Source of the DNA: a virus
Lineage: Duplodnaviria; Caudoviricetes
Virus record (IMG/VR): IMGVR_UViG_3300031555_002578
Reading direction: 5' to 3' (one strand)
Length of the DNA stretch: 64,000 nucleotides
The position numbers and the translations under genes are program-made. Below are positions 24,865 through 48,662 of the stretch, one piece after another (positions within the stretch are counted from its first letter, which is position 1; each line of letters starts with the position of its first letter). The notes beneath the pieces are model-generated. The model was not told where the DNA came from. It did not search any database and saw only the letters and a list, made by a program, of their open reading frames with translations.

Positions 24865-25023
24865 AGTTTTACTTCCTTCCTTCTGTGTCCTTGTTTTTAG
24901 TTTCTATATACATACTATCACAACGAAAATGCTGTGTCAATATGTTTTTTTCAAATTTCCATCGGAAACTTGTAAAAGCCTACAAAAACCATCTGCTTTT
25001 ATAGGCTTTAGCAATCATCCGAT

Positions 25024-25882: not shown

Positions 25883-25984
25883 AATCATTCCCCTTCCATT
25901 TTTTTGTTCATGCTCTGCGGACTTGTGACCGCCATCGGTAGCATTAAAGCGGGACTTTTTGTGTCCCACTCCACTCTGCTTTTA

Positions 25985-26914: not shown

Positions 26915-27012
26915 AAATCATACCTCTTTTCTGTGTTTTGTGTGCTTTTGGTTTCTAGTGTGAATACACCATAAAAGACACGAATTTTTGTTCGTGTCCT
27001 TCCTTGCTATAT

Positions 27013-27507: not shown

Positions 27508-27545
27508 AAAATAACCTTCTTTCGTTTTTGTGTGCTTTTTTACCT

Positions 27546-27620
27546 TCTCAAAATACCGAAAGCCTTGATTTTTCGGTACTTTGAGAAAATAAAAGGCGGT
27601 TTGTTTACCGCCTTATTTTC
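27546..27620 (-). terminator. two tandem hairpins after first early gene
   Basis: TTCTCAAAATACCGAAA...TTTCGGTACTTTGAGAA and AAGGCGGT-TTGTTT-ACCGCCTT. Confidence 0.55.
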
Positions 27621-27915
27621 ATTCAATAATTTCAAAATTTGTGATGCAAATATCAGCAAGGTAGCACATACAATTCTCAATATCCAAATAGAATTTTGCG
27701 TGTTTTTCGTTGCTATGTTCTACAATGTTTTTTGCAATTTCAAAAATATCATTCGTTGTGATGTTTTCTTGTTTTGCAAATTTTCTTGCGATTCTGTTAT
27801 TCCCAAAAAGCAAATTTTCATAATCCGCATTGTTTCCGCTTGTATACAAGTTATACTTGATACAAAAATTTCTTAAATCATAAGCGTTGATTCTTCTTGT
27901 TTCCTTAATTTTCAT
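27619..27915 (-). CDS. hypothetical protein, first gene of early arm
   Basis: GAGG SD; LRNFCIKYNLYTSG motif. Confidence 0.8.
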   Translation of the reverse strand: MKIKETRRINAYDLRNFCIKYNLYTSGNNADYENLLFGNNRIARKFAKQENITTNDIFEIAKNIVEHSNEKHAKFYLDIENCMCYLADICITNFEIIE

Positions 27916-27952
27916 AGTAAAACCTCTTTTCTGTATACTCTTTTTCCCATTG

Positions 27953-28247
27953 TAAAAACCTTGAATTTTCCGTATTTTTCAAGGCTTTTTCATAGGAAAA
28001 AAGGGGTTTTGCAACCCCTGTATTTTCTATGATAAAATCAGACCAAAATGGATTTTTAAGCATAAATCCGTAAAACTGCCGACTTACTTTTTCAGTCGCT
28101 TTTTTTGCTCTTGCCTGCCTGCCCCTGCCGACACCCTTCAAAGTTACTTTGAAGCCGTCATTCACTCACAGCCATTCTACAGGGACAAGTCAACCTGTAG
28201 TCGGTACTGATAAGGGATACCATTCCCGTAAGGGACTGCCCCTTACA
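27953..28247 (-). ncRNA. ~300-nt multi-hairpin leader / ncRNA
   Basis: Eight consecutive hairpins, GC-richer than flanks, immediately downstream of promoter 28254-28282. Confidence 0.6.
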
Positions 28248-28480
28248 CTTGATATGTTACTACAAGTCACAACGAAAAACAAGTACTTTTTAAGGATTTC
28301 ATTTATGTTTGTGCAAAATTACTTGAAATTCATTGTTTTTATATGTTTTTTGACCGTATTTTATACAATTTGCACAAAAACAGACTGAAATATATTTCAG
28401 TAAATGAACAAAAAAGTTTTGTATTTCTAAACTTTTTGTTTAATATATTAAAATCAGACCATAAAAAAGCCAAAAAACGG

Positions 28481-28651
28481 GAACACTTGTTTGCTTAATG
28501 CGAAAAAATATTCGTATAAATTAGCGAAAATTTTACATTGTGTTCGCTTTTGTTCGCCTTTTTTGAGTGAAAAAATGCTTAAATGAATAAAATTTTATTT
28601 ATTTATTGAAATATATTTTATTATCATTTTTGAGAATACGAATATATGTTC
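28481..28651. promoter_or_regulatory. two LexA (Cheo/SOS)-box-like sites
   Basis: GAACACTTGTTT 28481-28492; GAATATATGTTC 28640-28651. Confidence 0.45.
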
Positions 28652-33959: not shown

Positions 33960-34242
33960 TATTCCTTTAGAAGAACAGGAAACAGTTATTCATTTTATGC
34001 GTGGAGAAGATTTTGCTACTATTTCTACAACTGATAGTACAATGATTACTAAAATGACTAAATTATGTGACAATAATCCAGATATGTATAAAGTTATTAA
34101 TGAAGATGGTGCTTCAAAAATATATCGTTGTTACGATAAATCTATGGTTAGTCTAAGACAGAAAAAACGTGAAGTAACAGAAGAACAAAGAAAAGCCGCA
34201 GGTGAACGCATGAGGAAATATCAAGCAAGTAAAAATACATAA
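33946..34242 (+). CDS. conserved hypothetical protein
   Basis: AAGGAG SD; EQETVI...TEEQRKAAGERM motif. Confidence 0.75.
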   Translation: MANYNIPLEEQETVIHFMRGEDFATISTTDSTMITKMTKLCDNNPDMYKVINEDGASKIYRCYDKSMVSLRQKKREVTEEQRKAAGERMRKYQASKNT

Positions 34243-34388
34243 TGCGTTGTTTTATGCCAAATTTTAAAGATAGACTATTGTATAGAATTGATATATTATA
34301 TCGGTTTATTAATTTATCATCTAAAATGATATGTTTTCTATTCAATAGTCTATCTTTGATTATTAATATTAAAATGGAGGTGTTTCTA

Positions 34389-37016
34389 ATAGGAGAATTT
34401 GGATTAAAAATAAAAAATATAGAAGCAAGTACATTGTATGAATATAATATTGGGATTCGTGACCACTATGATTATAAAGAAGCAATGTTTACAAATAGTT
34501 TATTTTTTGATTTTCTTATGGAAAATGGTATGACTACTTGGAAAGAAGAAAGTACAAGAGATATTATTTGTTTGGAATTTAATTTTGGCACTCGTTCTTA
34601 TGAGCAAGAAATAGAACATATTACAAAGATTGCTCACAATGCTAGAAATGAATATAAACTTGCTAAATCTTTAAAAAATAAAAACGAGATTGAGAAAAAA
34701 TATAATAAAAGAAAAAAAATTCAATCTCTTTATTTAGAAGCAAAGAAAAATAAAGATAAATATAAAAAAATTTCTAAAGAAGAAATTAGACGTATTTTTT
34801 ATAATGATGGTGTAAATGTTGAATATGTATCTCGCAAAAAAGATGGCACAATAAAGAAAGTTGAAACAATTCATTATAAAATGCTCTATCGTAGCACTGG
34901 TAAAGCAAAAAAAGGTTCTTGTATGTTTATAAGAGATAAATTATATAAAAAAGCAAAAGATTTTTTATATATGGGAATTAAACTATCTAAAAAGAATCCT
35001 ATGATTGTTGAAATTAGTGCTTATGCCCCTCTTGTTTCTTCTACAATTGTAGACAAAATTAAAATCAATCCAAGAAATATTTTAATTTTAGAAGATATTG
35101 ATAGATTTTTTACTACAGATGTTGTAAGTATTGAAACGAATGAAAATAAGGAATGTATAGCAAAACATATACAGAACTATAAATTAAAAAACACATTGTT
35201 TGATGGACAAGCATTAATAGATAGCAGTATATTCCCTTCTTGGGGGAATGGATACATTCTTTTAAGGCATCATTTTACTAAAATGGCTGCATTTTGTGCT
35301 CATATTCAAGATTTTTTTAAAGATTATTTTGGAGATAAATATGATACAGCAACAGTATTGGATATGTTTGGCAATGAACATTATGTGAAAGATATTCAAT
35401 TAATTACAACAGACAACGCAGTGAAATGGCTAAAGTTTGATAAAACATATGATTATTGGTGCAATAAAGTTGAAGAAAATGGATGTAATTTTGGTATTGT
35501 AAAAACAGCACATGAAAGTAAACTCGGCTCTGTTCAAAAAATGAGTTATCAGATGGTGAATTCGTTGGATGAATCAATTATGCAAAATGTAATGAAAGAA
35601 AGTATTCAATATGTTGAAAGATTAAAACAAGATGATGATTTCTTTTTAGAATATTTAAAGAAAAACAGTAATTTTTCAAATGATTATGAAGTATTGATTG
35701 CTTTATGCGAACAAGATAGAGATTTTTTAAGGAGTAGTTATTTTAGACATAGAAAAGAATTTATAATTAAAAATTATGTTCTAAATATGAAAACAGGCAA
35801 GATTATTCAAAATGCAGAAAATCTTGTTATTGTTGGTTCTCCATATGCTATGTTATTATATGGTGCTACTGGAAATAAAAATATTGTTGATGAAGACCCT
35901 ACTTTTAATATTGAAGAAAATACTATTCAATGTTATACAGAAAGATTTGAAGATGGGGATTATTTGGCATTTTTTAGAAGTCCTTTTAATTCAAAGAATA
36001 ATCTCACATATTTACATAATTACAAACATGAATTATTAAAAAAATATTTTGAGTTTGGAGAACAAATCGTTGCAGTTAATTTGAATGGGACAGATTTCCA
36101 AGATAGAAACAATGGTTCAGACCAAGATTCAGACAGTGGATACTGTACAAATCAACCAGATATTGTAGAACATGCAAGACAATGTTATTTAAACTATCAT
36201 ACTATTGTAAACAATATTCCAAAAGATAAAAATGTTTATGAGAACACAATGGATGATTATGCAAAAATAGATAATGCTCTCGCAGGTTCTCAAAGAGATA
36301 TTGGAGAATCTAGTAATCTTGCTCAGATGGCTCAAACATATGCATGTAATTTTTCTGACCAAAAATATATAGATTATGTTTGTATATTAAGTGTTTTGGC
36401 TCAGGTTGCTATAGACAATGCAAAACGTAGATTTGATATTGATTTGGCAGGAGAAATTCGTAGAATTAAAAAAGATTTAGATATTAAAGAAAATAAATAT
36501 CCTAGTTTCTGGAGATTAATACGCAGAGATACCAAGTTTGAAAAGATAAATTGTAATTTAAAATGTCCAATGAATTGTTTGTATGATGTTGATTTAAATA
36601 AATTTAGAAAAAATTCCTCTACATTGCCAATGGATGTATTTTTTCAAAAATTTGAATTAGAACAAAACAGAAAAACTTGTAAAAAAGTTGAAGAATTAAT
36701 TCATAAATATTCTTTAAAAACTTTTGAGTATAATACTTCTGATGATGATAATTATAGAGATGAACAATATTTATTATTAAGGAATGATTTTAATGATTTA
36801 ATTAGCAACATTCAAAGAATTTATTTGTCTAGTAATTATATTGGATTAATGTCTTGGCTTATTGATAGGGCTTTTATGATTACACCAAACATTAATAGTA
36901 ATCATAAAGTAATACAAACAAAAATACATACAAATAAAGCAATTTTATTAAAAGTTTTATATCAAGTAAATTCAACAAATTTACTAAAAATATTTGCAAA
37001 AAATGTGCAAATTTAA
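34389..37016 (+). CDS. yonO: YonO-like single-subunit (double-psi-barrel) DNA-dependent RNA polymerase, probable ATA start
   Basis: FDGQ, LRHHF.K.AAF, SYQM, FRSP and NNGSDQDSD (DxDxD) motifs; GGAGGTG SD upstream of in-frame ATA; position ahead of late genes as in SPbeta. Confidence 0.8.
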   Translation: MGEFGLKIKNIEASTLYEYNIGIRDHYDYKEAMFTNSLFFDFLMENGMTTWKEESTRDIICLEFNFGTRSYEQEIEHITKIAHNARNEYKLAKSLKNKNEIEKKYNKRKKIQSLYLEAKKNKDKYKKISKEEIRRIFYNDGVNVEYVSRKKDGTIKKVETIHYKMLYRSTGKAKKGSCMFIRDKLYKKAKDFLYMGIKLSKKNPMIVEISAYAPLVSSTIVDKIKINPRNILILEDIDRFFTTDVVSIETNENKECIAKHIQNYKLKNTLFDGQALIDSSIFPSWGNGYILLRHHFTKMAAFCAHIQDFFKDYFGDKYDTATVLDMFGNEHYVKDIQLITTDNAVKWLKFDKTYDYWCNKVEENGCNFGIVKTAHESKLGSVQKMSYQMVNSLDESIMQNVMKESIQYVERLKQDDDFFLEYLKKNSNFSNDYEVLIALCEQDRDFLRSSYFRHRKEFIIKNYVLNMKTGKIIQNAENLVIVGSPYAMLLYGATGNKNIVDEDPTFNIEENTIQCYTERFEDGDYLAFFRSPFNSKNNLTYLHNYKHELLKKYFEFGEQIVAVNLNGTDFQDRNNGSDQDSDSGYCTNQPDIVEHARQCYLNYHTIVNNIPKDKNVYENTMDDYAKIDNALAGSQRDIGESSNLAQMAQTYACNFSDQKYIDYVCILSVLAQVAIDNAKRRFDIDLAGEIRRIKKDLDIKENKYPSFWRLIRRDTKFEKINCNLKCPMNCLYDVDLNKFRKNSSTLPMDVFFQKFELEQNRKTCKKVEELIHKYSLKTFEYNTSDDDNYRDEQYLLLRNDFNDLISNIQRIYLSSNYIGLMSWLIDRAFMITPNINSNHKVIQTKIHTNKAILLKVLYQVNSTNLLKIFAKNVQI

Positions 37017-41839: not shown

Positions 41840-41913
41840 CGCAGGTTATGGAAGTGGTCTATCCGCTGGGGTTCATACCTCCAGAATCGCAGGTTCAAAT
41901 CCTGCACCTGCAA
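41840..41913 (+). tRNA. tRNA-Met (CAT), initiator type
   Basis: Full cloverleaf; C1xA72 mismatch, G2-C71, C3-G70, G11-C24, anticodon loop TTCATAC, TTCAAAT T-loop; CCA not encoded. Confidence 0.9.
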
Positions 41914-41980: not shown

Positions 41981-42052
41981 AGGCGGTTAGTTTAATTGGT
42001 AAAACGTCAGTCTCCAAAACTGAAGTACAGTGTTCAAATCACTGCCCACCTG
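41981..42052 (+). tRNA. tRNA-Trp (CCA)
   Basis: Anticodon arm TCAGT-CTCCAAA-ACTGA; T arm CAGTG-TTCAAAT-CACTG; two acceptor-stem mismatches. Confidence 0.8.
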
Positions 42053-47021: not shown

Positions 47022-48662
47022 ATGCCTGAAGAAAGTAAAAAGAGGGGCAGACCTCCTAAAGTAAAACAAGAAGAAGTTGTTGAAACAAATAACGTTATTG
47101 ACAATACTAATTATGAATTTAATAGTTTTGTGGCAAATGGTAGTTTAATTGAAGCAGTTTTTTCTTGTGGTGTATTTAATTATTTTAGTAAAAATCAAAT
47201 TGATAATATTTTAAAAGACCCAATTACATATCATGAAGAAGCAATTAGATTGTCTAACTTTGTGTATGGTAAGAATGGTATTGTAGCGAATTCTATTGAT
47301 TATATGATTTCCCTACCCTGTTTAGATAAAATTATTATCAATAAAAATAAAAAAACAACTCAAGCAGTTAAAAAAAATAAAGCACTAATGAAAGCAACTC
47401 TTAATACAATTGATGATAAAACTTTTATTAGAAATGCTTTGTTTACACAAATGTTAGATGGTATTGCATTTTATTATTTTGAAACTAGAAAAAAGAAAAC
47501 AGACAACTCTAAATTTTTAAGTGATTATGAAGTTGAACATATTTATGAGATTAATGCTCTGGATGAAGCAAGTATTAATGCGTCCATTATTTCACTGCCT
47601 TGGCAATATACAAAAATTGTTGGTAAGAAAAATGGAAGATATGTTCTGGCTTTTAATTTAAGATATTTTGATGATTATACTGGTGAATCTTTAGACAGAA
47701 AATTAAGAAAATATCCATTAGAAATTGTTGAAGCATATAATACTAGAAAAAGTAATCCAACACAACATGGTGATTGGTATATTTTAGATAGTGATAAAAC
47801 AATGTGTCGTAAAATTAAATGTAAAGATTCTGAACCTTGGGGAAGAAGCGTTGTTATTGCTTCATTAGAAGATGTTTTGTATAAAGATTATTTTGTTGAT
47901 ACTAAAAGAAATGTCTTAGATGAAGTAAATAATAAGATTATTTATCAAACATTCCCAGAAGGTAAAGATAAAGGCACATGTGCTTTAACAAAAACACAAC
48001 AGGAACAACAACACTCAACTGTAAAACAAGCAGTTATGGGGAAAAACAGAAGAAATGGAGTAAGTTTCTTTAGTGTTGCTTCTGGTACAAAATTAAATTC
48101 TATTGATGTAGATATTGATATTTTTGATTCTAAAAATGAATCTGAGTTAAATAATCAAATTTCTCTTGATTTAGGTGTTTGTGCTTCTTTGATTGGTGCT
48201 ATGAGTACAGGTAATTTTGCGGCAGGTCAATCAAACTTAGAAATGATTACTGCACAATTATATTCTTGGATACATGAATGGCAAAATGAATTAAATCATG
48301 TTATTAACAAAAATATCATTCAAGATGAAAAGAATAGAGTTGAAATTTATTACTTCCCTACTTCATTTGTAAATAGACAATCATTTTTTGATATGATGAA
48401 ATCTTTATATAGTGAAGCAAGTGGCTCATTATCTTTCTTAATTGCTAGTACAGGTGTAGATGTTGATGCATATTTGTCTGTATTGGATATGGAAATTGCT
48501 GAAGGTTATTTTGAAAAATATTTACCTCATATGACAGCGTATACGAATAATGGGGATTCTTCTGGTGGTAGACCAGAAGAAAAGAATCCTACAAATGAAA
48601 ATACATTGCAGTCAAAAGCAAATAAAAGTAATGATATGCCTAAACCATCTACAAATAAATGA
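47022..48662 (+). CDS. portal protein
   Basis: 546 aa, follows terminase; EPWGRS, C-terminal GGRP. Confidence 0.8.
   Translation: MPEESKKRGRPPKVKQEEVVETNNVIDNTNYEFNSFVANGSLIEAVFSCGVFNYFSKNQIDNILKDPITYHEEAIRLSNFVYGKNGIVANSIDYMISLPCLDKIIINKNKKTTQAVKKNKALMKATLNTIDDKTFIRNALFTQMLDGIAFYYFETRKKKTDNSKFLSDYEVEHIYEINALDEASINASIISLPWQYTKIVGKKNGRYVLAFNLRYFDDYTGESLDRKLRKYPLEIVEAYNTRKSNPTQHGDWYILDSDKTMCRKIKCKDSEPWGRSVVIASLEDVLYKDYFVDTKRNVLDEVNNKIIYQTFPEGKDKGTCALTKTQQEQQHSTVKQAVMGKNRRNGVSFFSVASGTKLNSIDVDIDIFDSKNESELNNQISLDLGVCASLIGAMSTGNFAAGQSNLEMITAQLYSWIHEWQNELNHVINKNIIQDEKNRVEIYYFPTSFVNRQSFFDMMKSLYSEASGSLSFLIASTGVDVDAYLSVLDMEIAEGYFEKYLPHMTAYTNNGDSSGGRPEEKNPTNENTLQSKANKSNDMPKPSTNK

Follow-up and report, generated by a model that had tools for sequence, protein, structure and literature searches.

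At the head of the early gene arm of an SPbeta-like gut phage we found a real, folded, non-coding RNA element that has no Rfam match. This structured early leader is new, has a narrow distribution and belongs to none of the families tested, and its body is a swappable cassette between conserved flanks. The arrangement of the leader between a promoter and a series of terminators suggests the possibility that it controls read-through into the early genes.

The window (the whole stretch of 64,000 nt that was analyzed) is part of a 97-kb IMG/VR phage record, which is estimated to be ~57% complete. Its DNA is A+T-rich and carries two divergent gene arms. The portal protein was 67% identical to that of MT835469, an unannotated 176-kb phage from human faeces, and 41% identical to those of the Bacillus phages SPR, SPbetaL2 and SPbetaL3. 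The sequencing runs that hold this stretch are DNA only and come from faecal or gut metagenomes; in view of the portal identities we refer to an SPbeta-like gut phage. Runs X5-X7 contained the identical sequence on broken contigs, and run X9 contained the first gene, on contigs that do not span positions 28000-28326, which speaks neither for nor against the leader. The plus arm encodes a 924-aa protein (34242-37016, +), which matches only a PHROG of unknown function, as well as the portal (47022-48662, +) and two tRNA genes detected with Rfam (41840-41913 and 41981-42052, +).

Anatomy of the leader RNA

The leader is encoded by the minus strand, where it opens the small-gene arm, and adjoins a gene-free block of ~2 kb. 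Its transcript is predicted to start near 28248, downstream of a promoter (TTGTTT-17-TAACAT) that scores only 8/12 and was missed by a consensus scan. The features read in this region are as follows:

28254-28282 (-): early promoter, -35 TTGTTT at 28282-28277, 17-nt spacer, -10 TAACAT at 28259-28254
27994-28248 (-): type A leader RNA, ~255 nt between predicted start and T1 U-run, recognized by its fold, covariation and the homologue L030
28228-28246 (-): P1, hairpin at the 5' end, GUAAGGG/CCCUUAC
28214-28227 (-): P2 hairpin, GGGA/UCCC
28177-28200 (-): P3 hairpin, CUACAGG/CCUGUAG, loop motif UUGACUU
28153-28173 (-): P4 hairpin, GGCUGU/ACGGCU, with two G-U pairs
28136-28154 (-): P4b hairpin, CUUCAAAG uaa CUUUGAAG
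28097-28126 (-): invariant purine-rich core, reading AGGGGCAGGCAGGCAAGAGC, then an A-run, then GCG
28080-28098 (-): P5 hairpin, CGACU/AGUCG
28050-28069 (-): P6 hairpin, GGAUUU/AAAUCC
27996-28019 (-): T1, intrinsic terminator (hairpin 28019-28002), 7-bp stem, GCAA loop, U6, -10.5 kcal/mol
28009-28038 (+): predicted promoter-like site on the opposite strand, a motif only, with TTGCAA (in the T1 loop), 18 nt and TGaTAAAAT
27954-27985 (-): T2, second terminator-like hairpin (27985-27959), GCCUUGAA/UUCAAGG, then U5
27913-27928 (-): ribosome-binding site AAGAGG and ATG of the first early gene
27619-27915 (-): first early gene, 98 aa
27593-27614 (-): T3, strong terminator directly after gene 1 (hairpin 27613-27594), -11.3 kcal/mol

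An initial annotation had described a unit of eight hairpins, placed between the promoter at 28254-28282 and the Shine-Dalgarno sequence of the gene starting at 27915. We read this placement in the same way, and all eight stems were found on the minus strand at the coordinates proposed. However, the stems at 27991-28031 and 27953-27989 are the tandem terminators T1 and T2 and lie outside the folded body, which contains in addition a ninth helix, P4 (28173-28153). The longer extent of the T1 stem reflects an outer stem, CAUAG/CUAUG, that reaches to 28031-27991.

It had also been proposed that no further consensus promoter follows for 3 kb, although several terminator-like hairpins intervene, and both points held. 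The next near-consensus minus-strand promoter is at 24940, we read no promoter in the stretch from T2 to the ATG or behind gene 1, and the early promoter is thus the only one for the first ~3.3 kb of the arm. The intervening terminators include T1 and T3, both strong, a weaker hairpin with a U-run behind T3, and another hairpin with a U-run after gene 2.

The predicted fold of the leader, which occurs as a single copy in the 97-kb record, was better than that of shuffled sequences of equal dinucleotide content (z = -3.8 over 340 nt, z = -3.0 over 255 nt), and the leader forms a regional G+C peak of 50% compared to ~31% in the surrounding DNA. The fold z-scores of the opposite strand were equally good. 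P5, P6 and T1 of the type A leader contain Watson-Crick pairs only and therefore fold on both strands, while the G-U pairs in P1, P2 and P4 suit only the minus-strand transcript. The 3' strand of P2 has an alternative pairing with GGCAGGGG of the core, as is seen in the minimum-energy fold of the homologue L030.

The core is a GGCA-type repeat, and its positions 28111-28126 (-) hold five GG tracts separated by CA, GGCAGGGGCAGGCAGG. On paper these could form a two-layer RNA G-quadruplex, and the opposite strand of the core reads UGCUCUUG, which is boxA-core-like; we note both as resemblances only.

Helices are kept in a homologue in which the reading frame is broken

Through the downstream 98-aa protein we reached a homologous Logan contig, L030. 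A covariance model built from the single RNA sequence of the window matched L030:706-947 with 78 bits (E 1.5e-23), and among 34 loci and five whole related records only the window and L030 were matched. DNA identity between the window and L030 varied along the region:

Upstream non-coding DNA: 50%
RNA body: 64%
J-domain gene: 72%
98-aa first gene: 95%

The 29-nt core was identical in L030 except for one A of the A-run. In the model-fitted alignment, 95.5% of cells were paired compared to 38-60% with slid partners, and 14 pairs were changed on both sides compared to 0-5 with slid partners, a number reached by none of 500 shuffles. These changes are located in P2, P3, P4b, P5 and T1, with five of them in T1. 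Since only two sequences are aligned, and the structure itself guided their alignment, we take the covariation as support and not as proof. Because MAFFT alignments placed the hairpin regions out of structural register, the comparison of individual helices rests on the fold of each sequence together with the model-fitted alignment.

In L030 a 6-nt insertion adds three pairs to P1, giving 10 bp with two G-U pairs that would be mismatches on the other strand. The closing pair of P2 is A-U in the window and U-G in L030. P3 is 12 bp long in L030, where its 5' strand comes from an insertion; the loop UUGACUU is kept, and the fourth pair of the window helix, C-G, is U-A. For P4, GCUGU/ACGGU with a larger loop is possible in L030. 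P5 reads CGUAUU/AAUACG, all Watson-Crick and with two pairs changed on both sides, and P6 reads GGUUU/AAACC, shorter by one whole pair. At P4b, MAFFT shows a 16-nt deletion in L030, where the covariance model places a different L030 hairpin, and the homology of the two hairpins is uncertain. Type A is known from these two sequences only, the window and L030, and so narrow a distribution limits the weight of the finding.

The initial annotation had raised the possibility that ORF 27905-28165 might instead prove to be conserved at the codon level without covariation of the stems. This was not the case, since the frame ends after 21 codons in L030, and the coding reading was rejected. Indels of 1, 6, 10, 12 and 16 nt disrupt the frame in L030, and because indels that are not multiples of three break it, the leader is not coding. 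The ORF also had no PHROG match, and in the 29-nt core all three codon positions are invariant. The lost frame, the stems that covary with L030 and the z-scores of the fold together bear out the earlier proposal of a structured non-coding RNA. As for the antiterminator that the annotation had offered as one of its inferences, the anatomy would suit a stand-alone small RNA or a sense/antisense unit roughly equally well.

Searches for known families

The element had not been recognized as an Rfam family, and our search of positions 27600-28600 against Rfam 15 agreed with this: no family, those of riboswitches, EAR, c4 and ribozymes included, reached its gathering threshold, nor was any found at E up to 10. 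The best score was that of STnc50, with 24.9 bits against a threshold of 55, and this match covered the terminator only. Type B and type C leaders of related phages, described below, had no Rfam match either. A blastn search in distant mode against GenBank phages gave no match to the leader. Exact-motif scans for the core in IMG/VR, JGI metagenomes and GTDB genomes returned only terminase-coding or chance matches, and scans of IMG/VR with flank motifs and one type B motif returned nothing relevant.

At the protein level, the 98-aa gene had no relatives in IMG/VR, and its product matched no family; a feature search of the ESM Atlas gave only sub-threshold leads. No match to an antiterminator family was found among the window proteins scanned. 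ConAn1 and NusG paralogues were considered as protein partners and set aside, as none was found in the 97-kb record. PF17362 (ConAn1) was absent from the first genes of the window and of the related contigs L061, L062 and L063 in a Pfam scan even at E of 1, and a six-frame search of the 97-kb record, which is ~57% complete, gave no match to it.

The RNA body is exchanged between conserved flanks

Three further contigs (L061, L062 and L063) were reached via proteins related to the J-domain gene. Their upstream DNA is 81-92% identical to that of the window as far as the promoter, and homology to the window resumes at T1. Between promoter and T1 they contain an unrelated body of ~200-260 nt, which we call type B. 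The three type B copies have a mean column identity of 78% and show some covariation; the fold z-score of type B is only -1.5, which is not significant. In L069, a more distant relative, the J-domain gene lies behind a leader of ~620 nt with a third unrelated sequence (type C, L069:1870-2500), the promoter of which reads TTGAAA-17-TGcTATCAT.

Promoter-like hexamers with a 17-nt spacer were found at the equivalent place in all five contigs of types A and B:

Window: -35 TTGTTT, -10 TAACAT
L030: -35 TAGACT, -10 TGcTATAAT
L061: -35 TTGCTT, -10 TATACT
L062: -35 TTGCTT, -10 TGaTACTCT
L063: -35 TTGATT, -10 TGtTATAAT

T1 was likewise present in each of the five, with three stem sequences and the same loop, GUUGCAAA or GUGGCAAA, and so was T2, with four stem sequences, hairpin energies between -11.7 and -16.6 kcal/mol and U4-U5 behind the hairpin. 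Since these flanks are kept in all five contigs, the conserved design consists of a promoter, a variable folded RNA, two terminators and a first gene, within which the RNA body is the part that is swapped.

The first early gene, which is bracketed by terminators, also differs between relatives. Its product is the 98-aa protein in type A, and in type B each of the three contigs has a protein of its own there, of 92-108 aa (window 27619-27915 (-); L030:1027-1323; L061:2451-2762; L062:2625-2903; L063:2578-2904). The identity of the 98-aa gene between the window and L030, compared to 64-79% for its flanks, points to a recent exchange of this gene alone.

Comparison with known leader RNAs

The put RNAs of HK022 (putL and putR) stand at the head of phage early operons, are ~70 nt long with two hairpins, and act on the beta-prime zinc-binding domain of the polymerase, and the EAR element of the Bacillus eps operon is ~120 nt long. 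Both are much smaller than the leader, which has ~250 nt and eight or nine helices. The host group of put also differs from that of the leader and, as there is no Rfam match, any Rfam model of EAR is unmatched as well. In those passages of the pLS20 study that deal with put, these are cis-acting RNAs located just past the promoter that allow the polymerase to pass terminators without a phage protein (PMC8191782).

Closer in size are two elements from conjugative systems. The canT RNA of Tn916 is a cis-acting, processive antiterminator of 341-452 nt with a complex multi-hairpin fold (Wirachman and Grossman 2024, PMC11658703). Within its long operon it precedes several intrinsic terminators, and it apparently needs no protein encoded by the element (PMC11658703). 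Like canT, the leader is a large multi-hairpin RNA of a Gram-positive mobile element with terminators downstream; however, canT belongs to a conjugative transposon and not to a phage, we liken the two by description only, and the function of canT has been shown whereas that of the leader is deduced. The conAn2 elements of pLS20 and of other Gram-positive conjugative plasmids are 260-600 nt long with 30-40% identity between elements, lie at the start of a terminator-rich long operon, and depend on a short G+C-rich patch and stem-loops, which are essential (Miguel-Arribas et al. 2021, PMC8191782). Comparable features of the leader are its length of ~255 nt, the 29-nt G+C-rich core, the eight or nine helices, and T1-T3 with the weaker terminators downstream. 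Unlike the leader, which precedes the first gene and is accompanied by no PF17362 protein that we could find, conAn2 follows the conAn1 gene and needs ConAn1, which has the pXO2-34 domain (PF17362), for processivity. Both canT and conAn2 act in cis to render the polymerase insensitive to the operon's terminators. The authors of the pLS20 study proposed that the operon terminators stop spurious transcripts while licensed ones pass (PMC8191782), a logic that would fit a gate located beside an origin region. Among the RNA-based processive antiterminators described in the literature that we compared (put, EAR, conAn2 and canT), only put comes from a phage, and its host is Gram-negative.

Counter-transcript attenuation is known from the rep leaders of pT181, pIP501 and pAMbeta1, and a related case is the c4 immunity RNA of P1/P7. 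These systems resemble the leader in having a structured leader and a terminator before the first gene, possibly an internal antisense RNA, and sequence-specific variants among close relatives. They differ from it in that the antisense promoter is here a motif only and that the leader heads a phage early arm and not a rep gene; moreover, no pre-emptor pairing of the known counter-transcript type was found in the leader. In phages of the SPbeta group, antitermination by AimR overcomes a terminator ahead of aimX, AimR being a DNA-binding protein with a site beside the terminator within aimP-aimX (PMC10769878). The broad phage group (portal identity 41%) and the terminator before an effector gene are shared with our case, but a gene-free block without an aimR-aimP context lies upstream of the leader.

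Read-through control and alternative explanations

The reading that we tentatively favour, at somewhat under an even chance, is that the leader is a cis-acting RNA which sets read-through into the early arm, by analogy with canT, conAn2 and put. That the region is transcribed, that it controls read-through and that it acts in cis is what we infer from the DNA sequence. The J-domain, DUF8033 and YodL-like genes of the arm would need polymerases that pass at least two strong terminators, since no promoter is found before 24940. Under such a scheme, the host RNA polymerase would start near 28248 and would first produce the folded body of ~230 nt, made up of the 5' hairpin, the multi-helix 5' domain, the core, P5 and P6. 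Next on its path would be T1 and T2 in tandem, ahead of the first gene, with further terminators behind genes 1 and 2. The nascent RNA would act on its own polymerase, so that T1/T2 and the later terminators are passed, whereas unmodified complexes, or polymerases arriving from the origin region, would stop at T1/T2 and release an RNA of ~255 nt. A mechanism that requires RNA only would fit the first transcript of an infection because no phage protein exists yet.

Read-through control is supported by the order of promoter, RNA, T1, T2 and ribosome site, which is kept in five contigs even though three of them have another body. The covariation of the helices and the 29-nt core count in the same direction, as do the size, the G+C-rich patch, the stem-loops and the poor conservation, all of which match conAn2 and canT. 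We also count in its favour that no ConAn1 or NusG-like protein was found in the 97-kb record and that P3 and T1 are complementary in both type A RNAs (see below), although this pairing is costly to force and the covariation comes from two sequences aligned to the structure. On the other hand, unrelated bodies (types A, B and C) in near-identical phages would not be expected if the RNA docks on one host polymerase. The equally good fold z-score of the opposite strand counts against it too, as does type B, which has no comparable complement to T1 and a fold z of -1.5, and a promoter followed by a strong terminator gives the locus the look of a small-RNA gene.

This last resemblance leads to an explanation that we consider unlikely, if still a serious contender, in which the leader is a stand-alone phage small RNA of ~255 nt (~295 nt if it ends at T2) acting in trans, for example via its core, with the early genes fed by leaky read-through. 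The 5' hairpin and the U6 terminator are typical of such genes, the tandem terminators argue for efficient release, the swapping of bodies among close relatives is typical of accessory cargo, and the 29 invariant nucleotides could serve as a seed or bind a protein. However, the genes downstream of T2 or T3 would be left without a promoter until 24940, and a search of the 97-kb phage record for targets of the core yielded none that was convincing, the best same-strand duplexes lying ~4 sd from the mean in ~32,000 windows and the best non-self match being antisense to early genes. A different role for the exchanged body, as a determinant of immunity or incompatibility specificity, would follow if this were a sense/antisense unit of the pT181, pIP501 or P1 c4 kind, with a counter-transcript from the promoter-like site at T1 that pairs with P5-P6 and the core and sets termination at T1/T2. 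The plus strand carries TTGCAA or TTGCCA and TAAAAT or TATAAA, 17-18 nt apart, in all five contigs, and the T1 loop, which supplies the -35 hexamer, is invariant while the T1 stem is variable. In type A the predicted counter-transcript would be ~62 nt long, with one or two hairpins and a U6-U7 end that is the complement of the conserved A-run; the folding of P5, P6 and T1 on both strands and the swapping of the cassette beside an origin-like region would also fit. We nevertheless regard this explanation as improbable, given that promoter-like matches occur at chance frequency in DNA so rich in A+T (36 found vs 37 expected), that type B is without a clear counter-transcript terminator, and that the best T1 complement falls outside the counter-transcript region.

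That complement raises the possibility, to which we attach little credence, of a riboswitch-like attenuator specific to T1, in which a ligand, a protein or an RNA would free the 3' strand of P3 to pair with the 5' strand of T1. Upstream of T1, the sequence that best complements its 5' strand (28022-28015) is indeed the P3 3' strand (28185-28178), with a predicted pairing of UCCCUGUA with UACAGGGG in the window (-12.1 kcal/mol) and of CUUCCCUU with AAGGGAAG in L030 (-12.6 kcal/mol), and in each RNA ~5-6% of shuffled T1 strands gave an equally good complement. Although their sequences have changed, the two type A RNAs share this 8-bp complementarity at homologous positions, the P3 3' strand can also pair with the P3 5' strand and with the core, providing competing structures, and intrinsic terminators (T1 and T2) precede the first gene in all five contigs. 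Yet the partners are ~155 nt apart, the terminator fold is better than the forced P3-T1 fold by 10-12 kcal/mol, and T2 and T3 would still terminate; the complementarity of the RNA to the stems of T2, T3, T4 and T5 was at chance level. Type B lacks a comparable T1 complement, and no known aptamer was matched in Rfam. It would be most surprising, finally, if the leader had no RNA function and its hairpins were either a remnant in decay or elements of the DNA itself, belonging to the neighbouring putative origin and control region, for instance sites where proteins bind or where single-strand initiation takes place. The adjoining 2-kb gene-free block, the equal significance of the folds on both strands and the GGCA-type repeat of the core would be in keeping with this; however, a conserved promoter and terminators bracket the leader in the right orientation, the G-U pairs of P1, P2 and P4 work only in a minus-strand transcript, and changes on both sides preserve the helices.

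Returning to control of read-through in cis, a wider proposal, speculative and in our view rather unlikely, is that the early arm of SPbeta-like gut phages begins with one of several structured RNAs that are unrelated and can be interchanged (types A, B and C), each of which would be a protein-independent cis antiterminator that licenses only promoter-initiated host polymerase to pass the tandem gate terminators. If true, these would be the first counterparts of canT and conAn2 in phages of Gram-positive hosts, and many different RNA folds would be able to perform one task. For the leader itself, an antiterminator function would mean that the principle also applies in large phages that infect Gram-positive gut bacteria, and types A and B between identical flanks would provide natural swap variants that serve as controls for dissecting the requirements of the RNA. 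Were it instead a free small RNA or an antisense immunity cassette, it would still be an early phage RNA that has not been catalogued before and has a sharply conserved core of 29 nt.

Further features of the early arm

A type-P5 twister ribozyme (RF02684, 52-58 bits) was found at 25917-25980 (-) in the window and at L030:2831-2899, L061:4389-4452 and L062:4578-4641. It sits between early genes and is kept in the three relatives, and its conservation suggests that a polycistronic early RNA would be processed by self-cleavage.

After each terminator hairpin, a recurring leader, AAAGCACACAAAAA followed by GAAAAGAGG, lies ahead of successive early genes (27520-27545 and 26925-26960 (-), with equivalents in relatives), and every small early gene has the appearance of a standard cassette.

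A second copy of the 3' tail of the RNA was observed upstream of the promoter, at 28413-28464 (-) and at L061:1925-1976. It consists of UGGUCUGAUUUUA, behind which lie an A+U hairpin and a U-run, and the motif is absent inside the L030 RNA. This copy may act as a terminator shielding the promoter, may bind a protein, or may mark a joint at which cassettes are exchanged by recombination.
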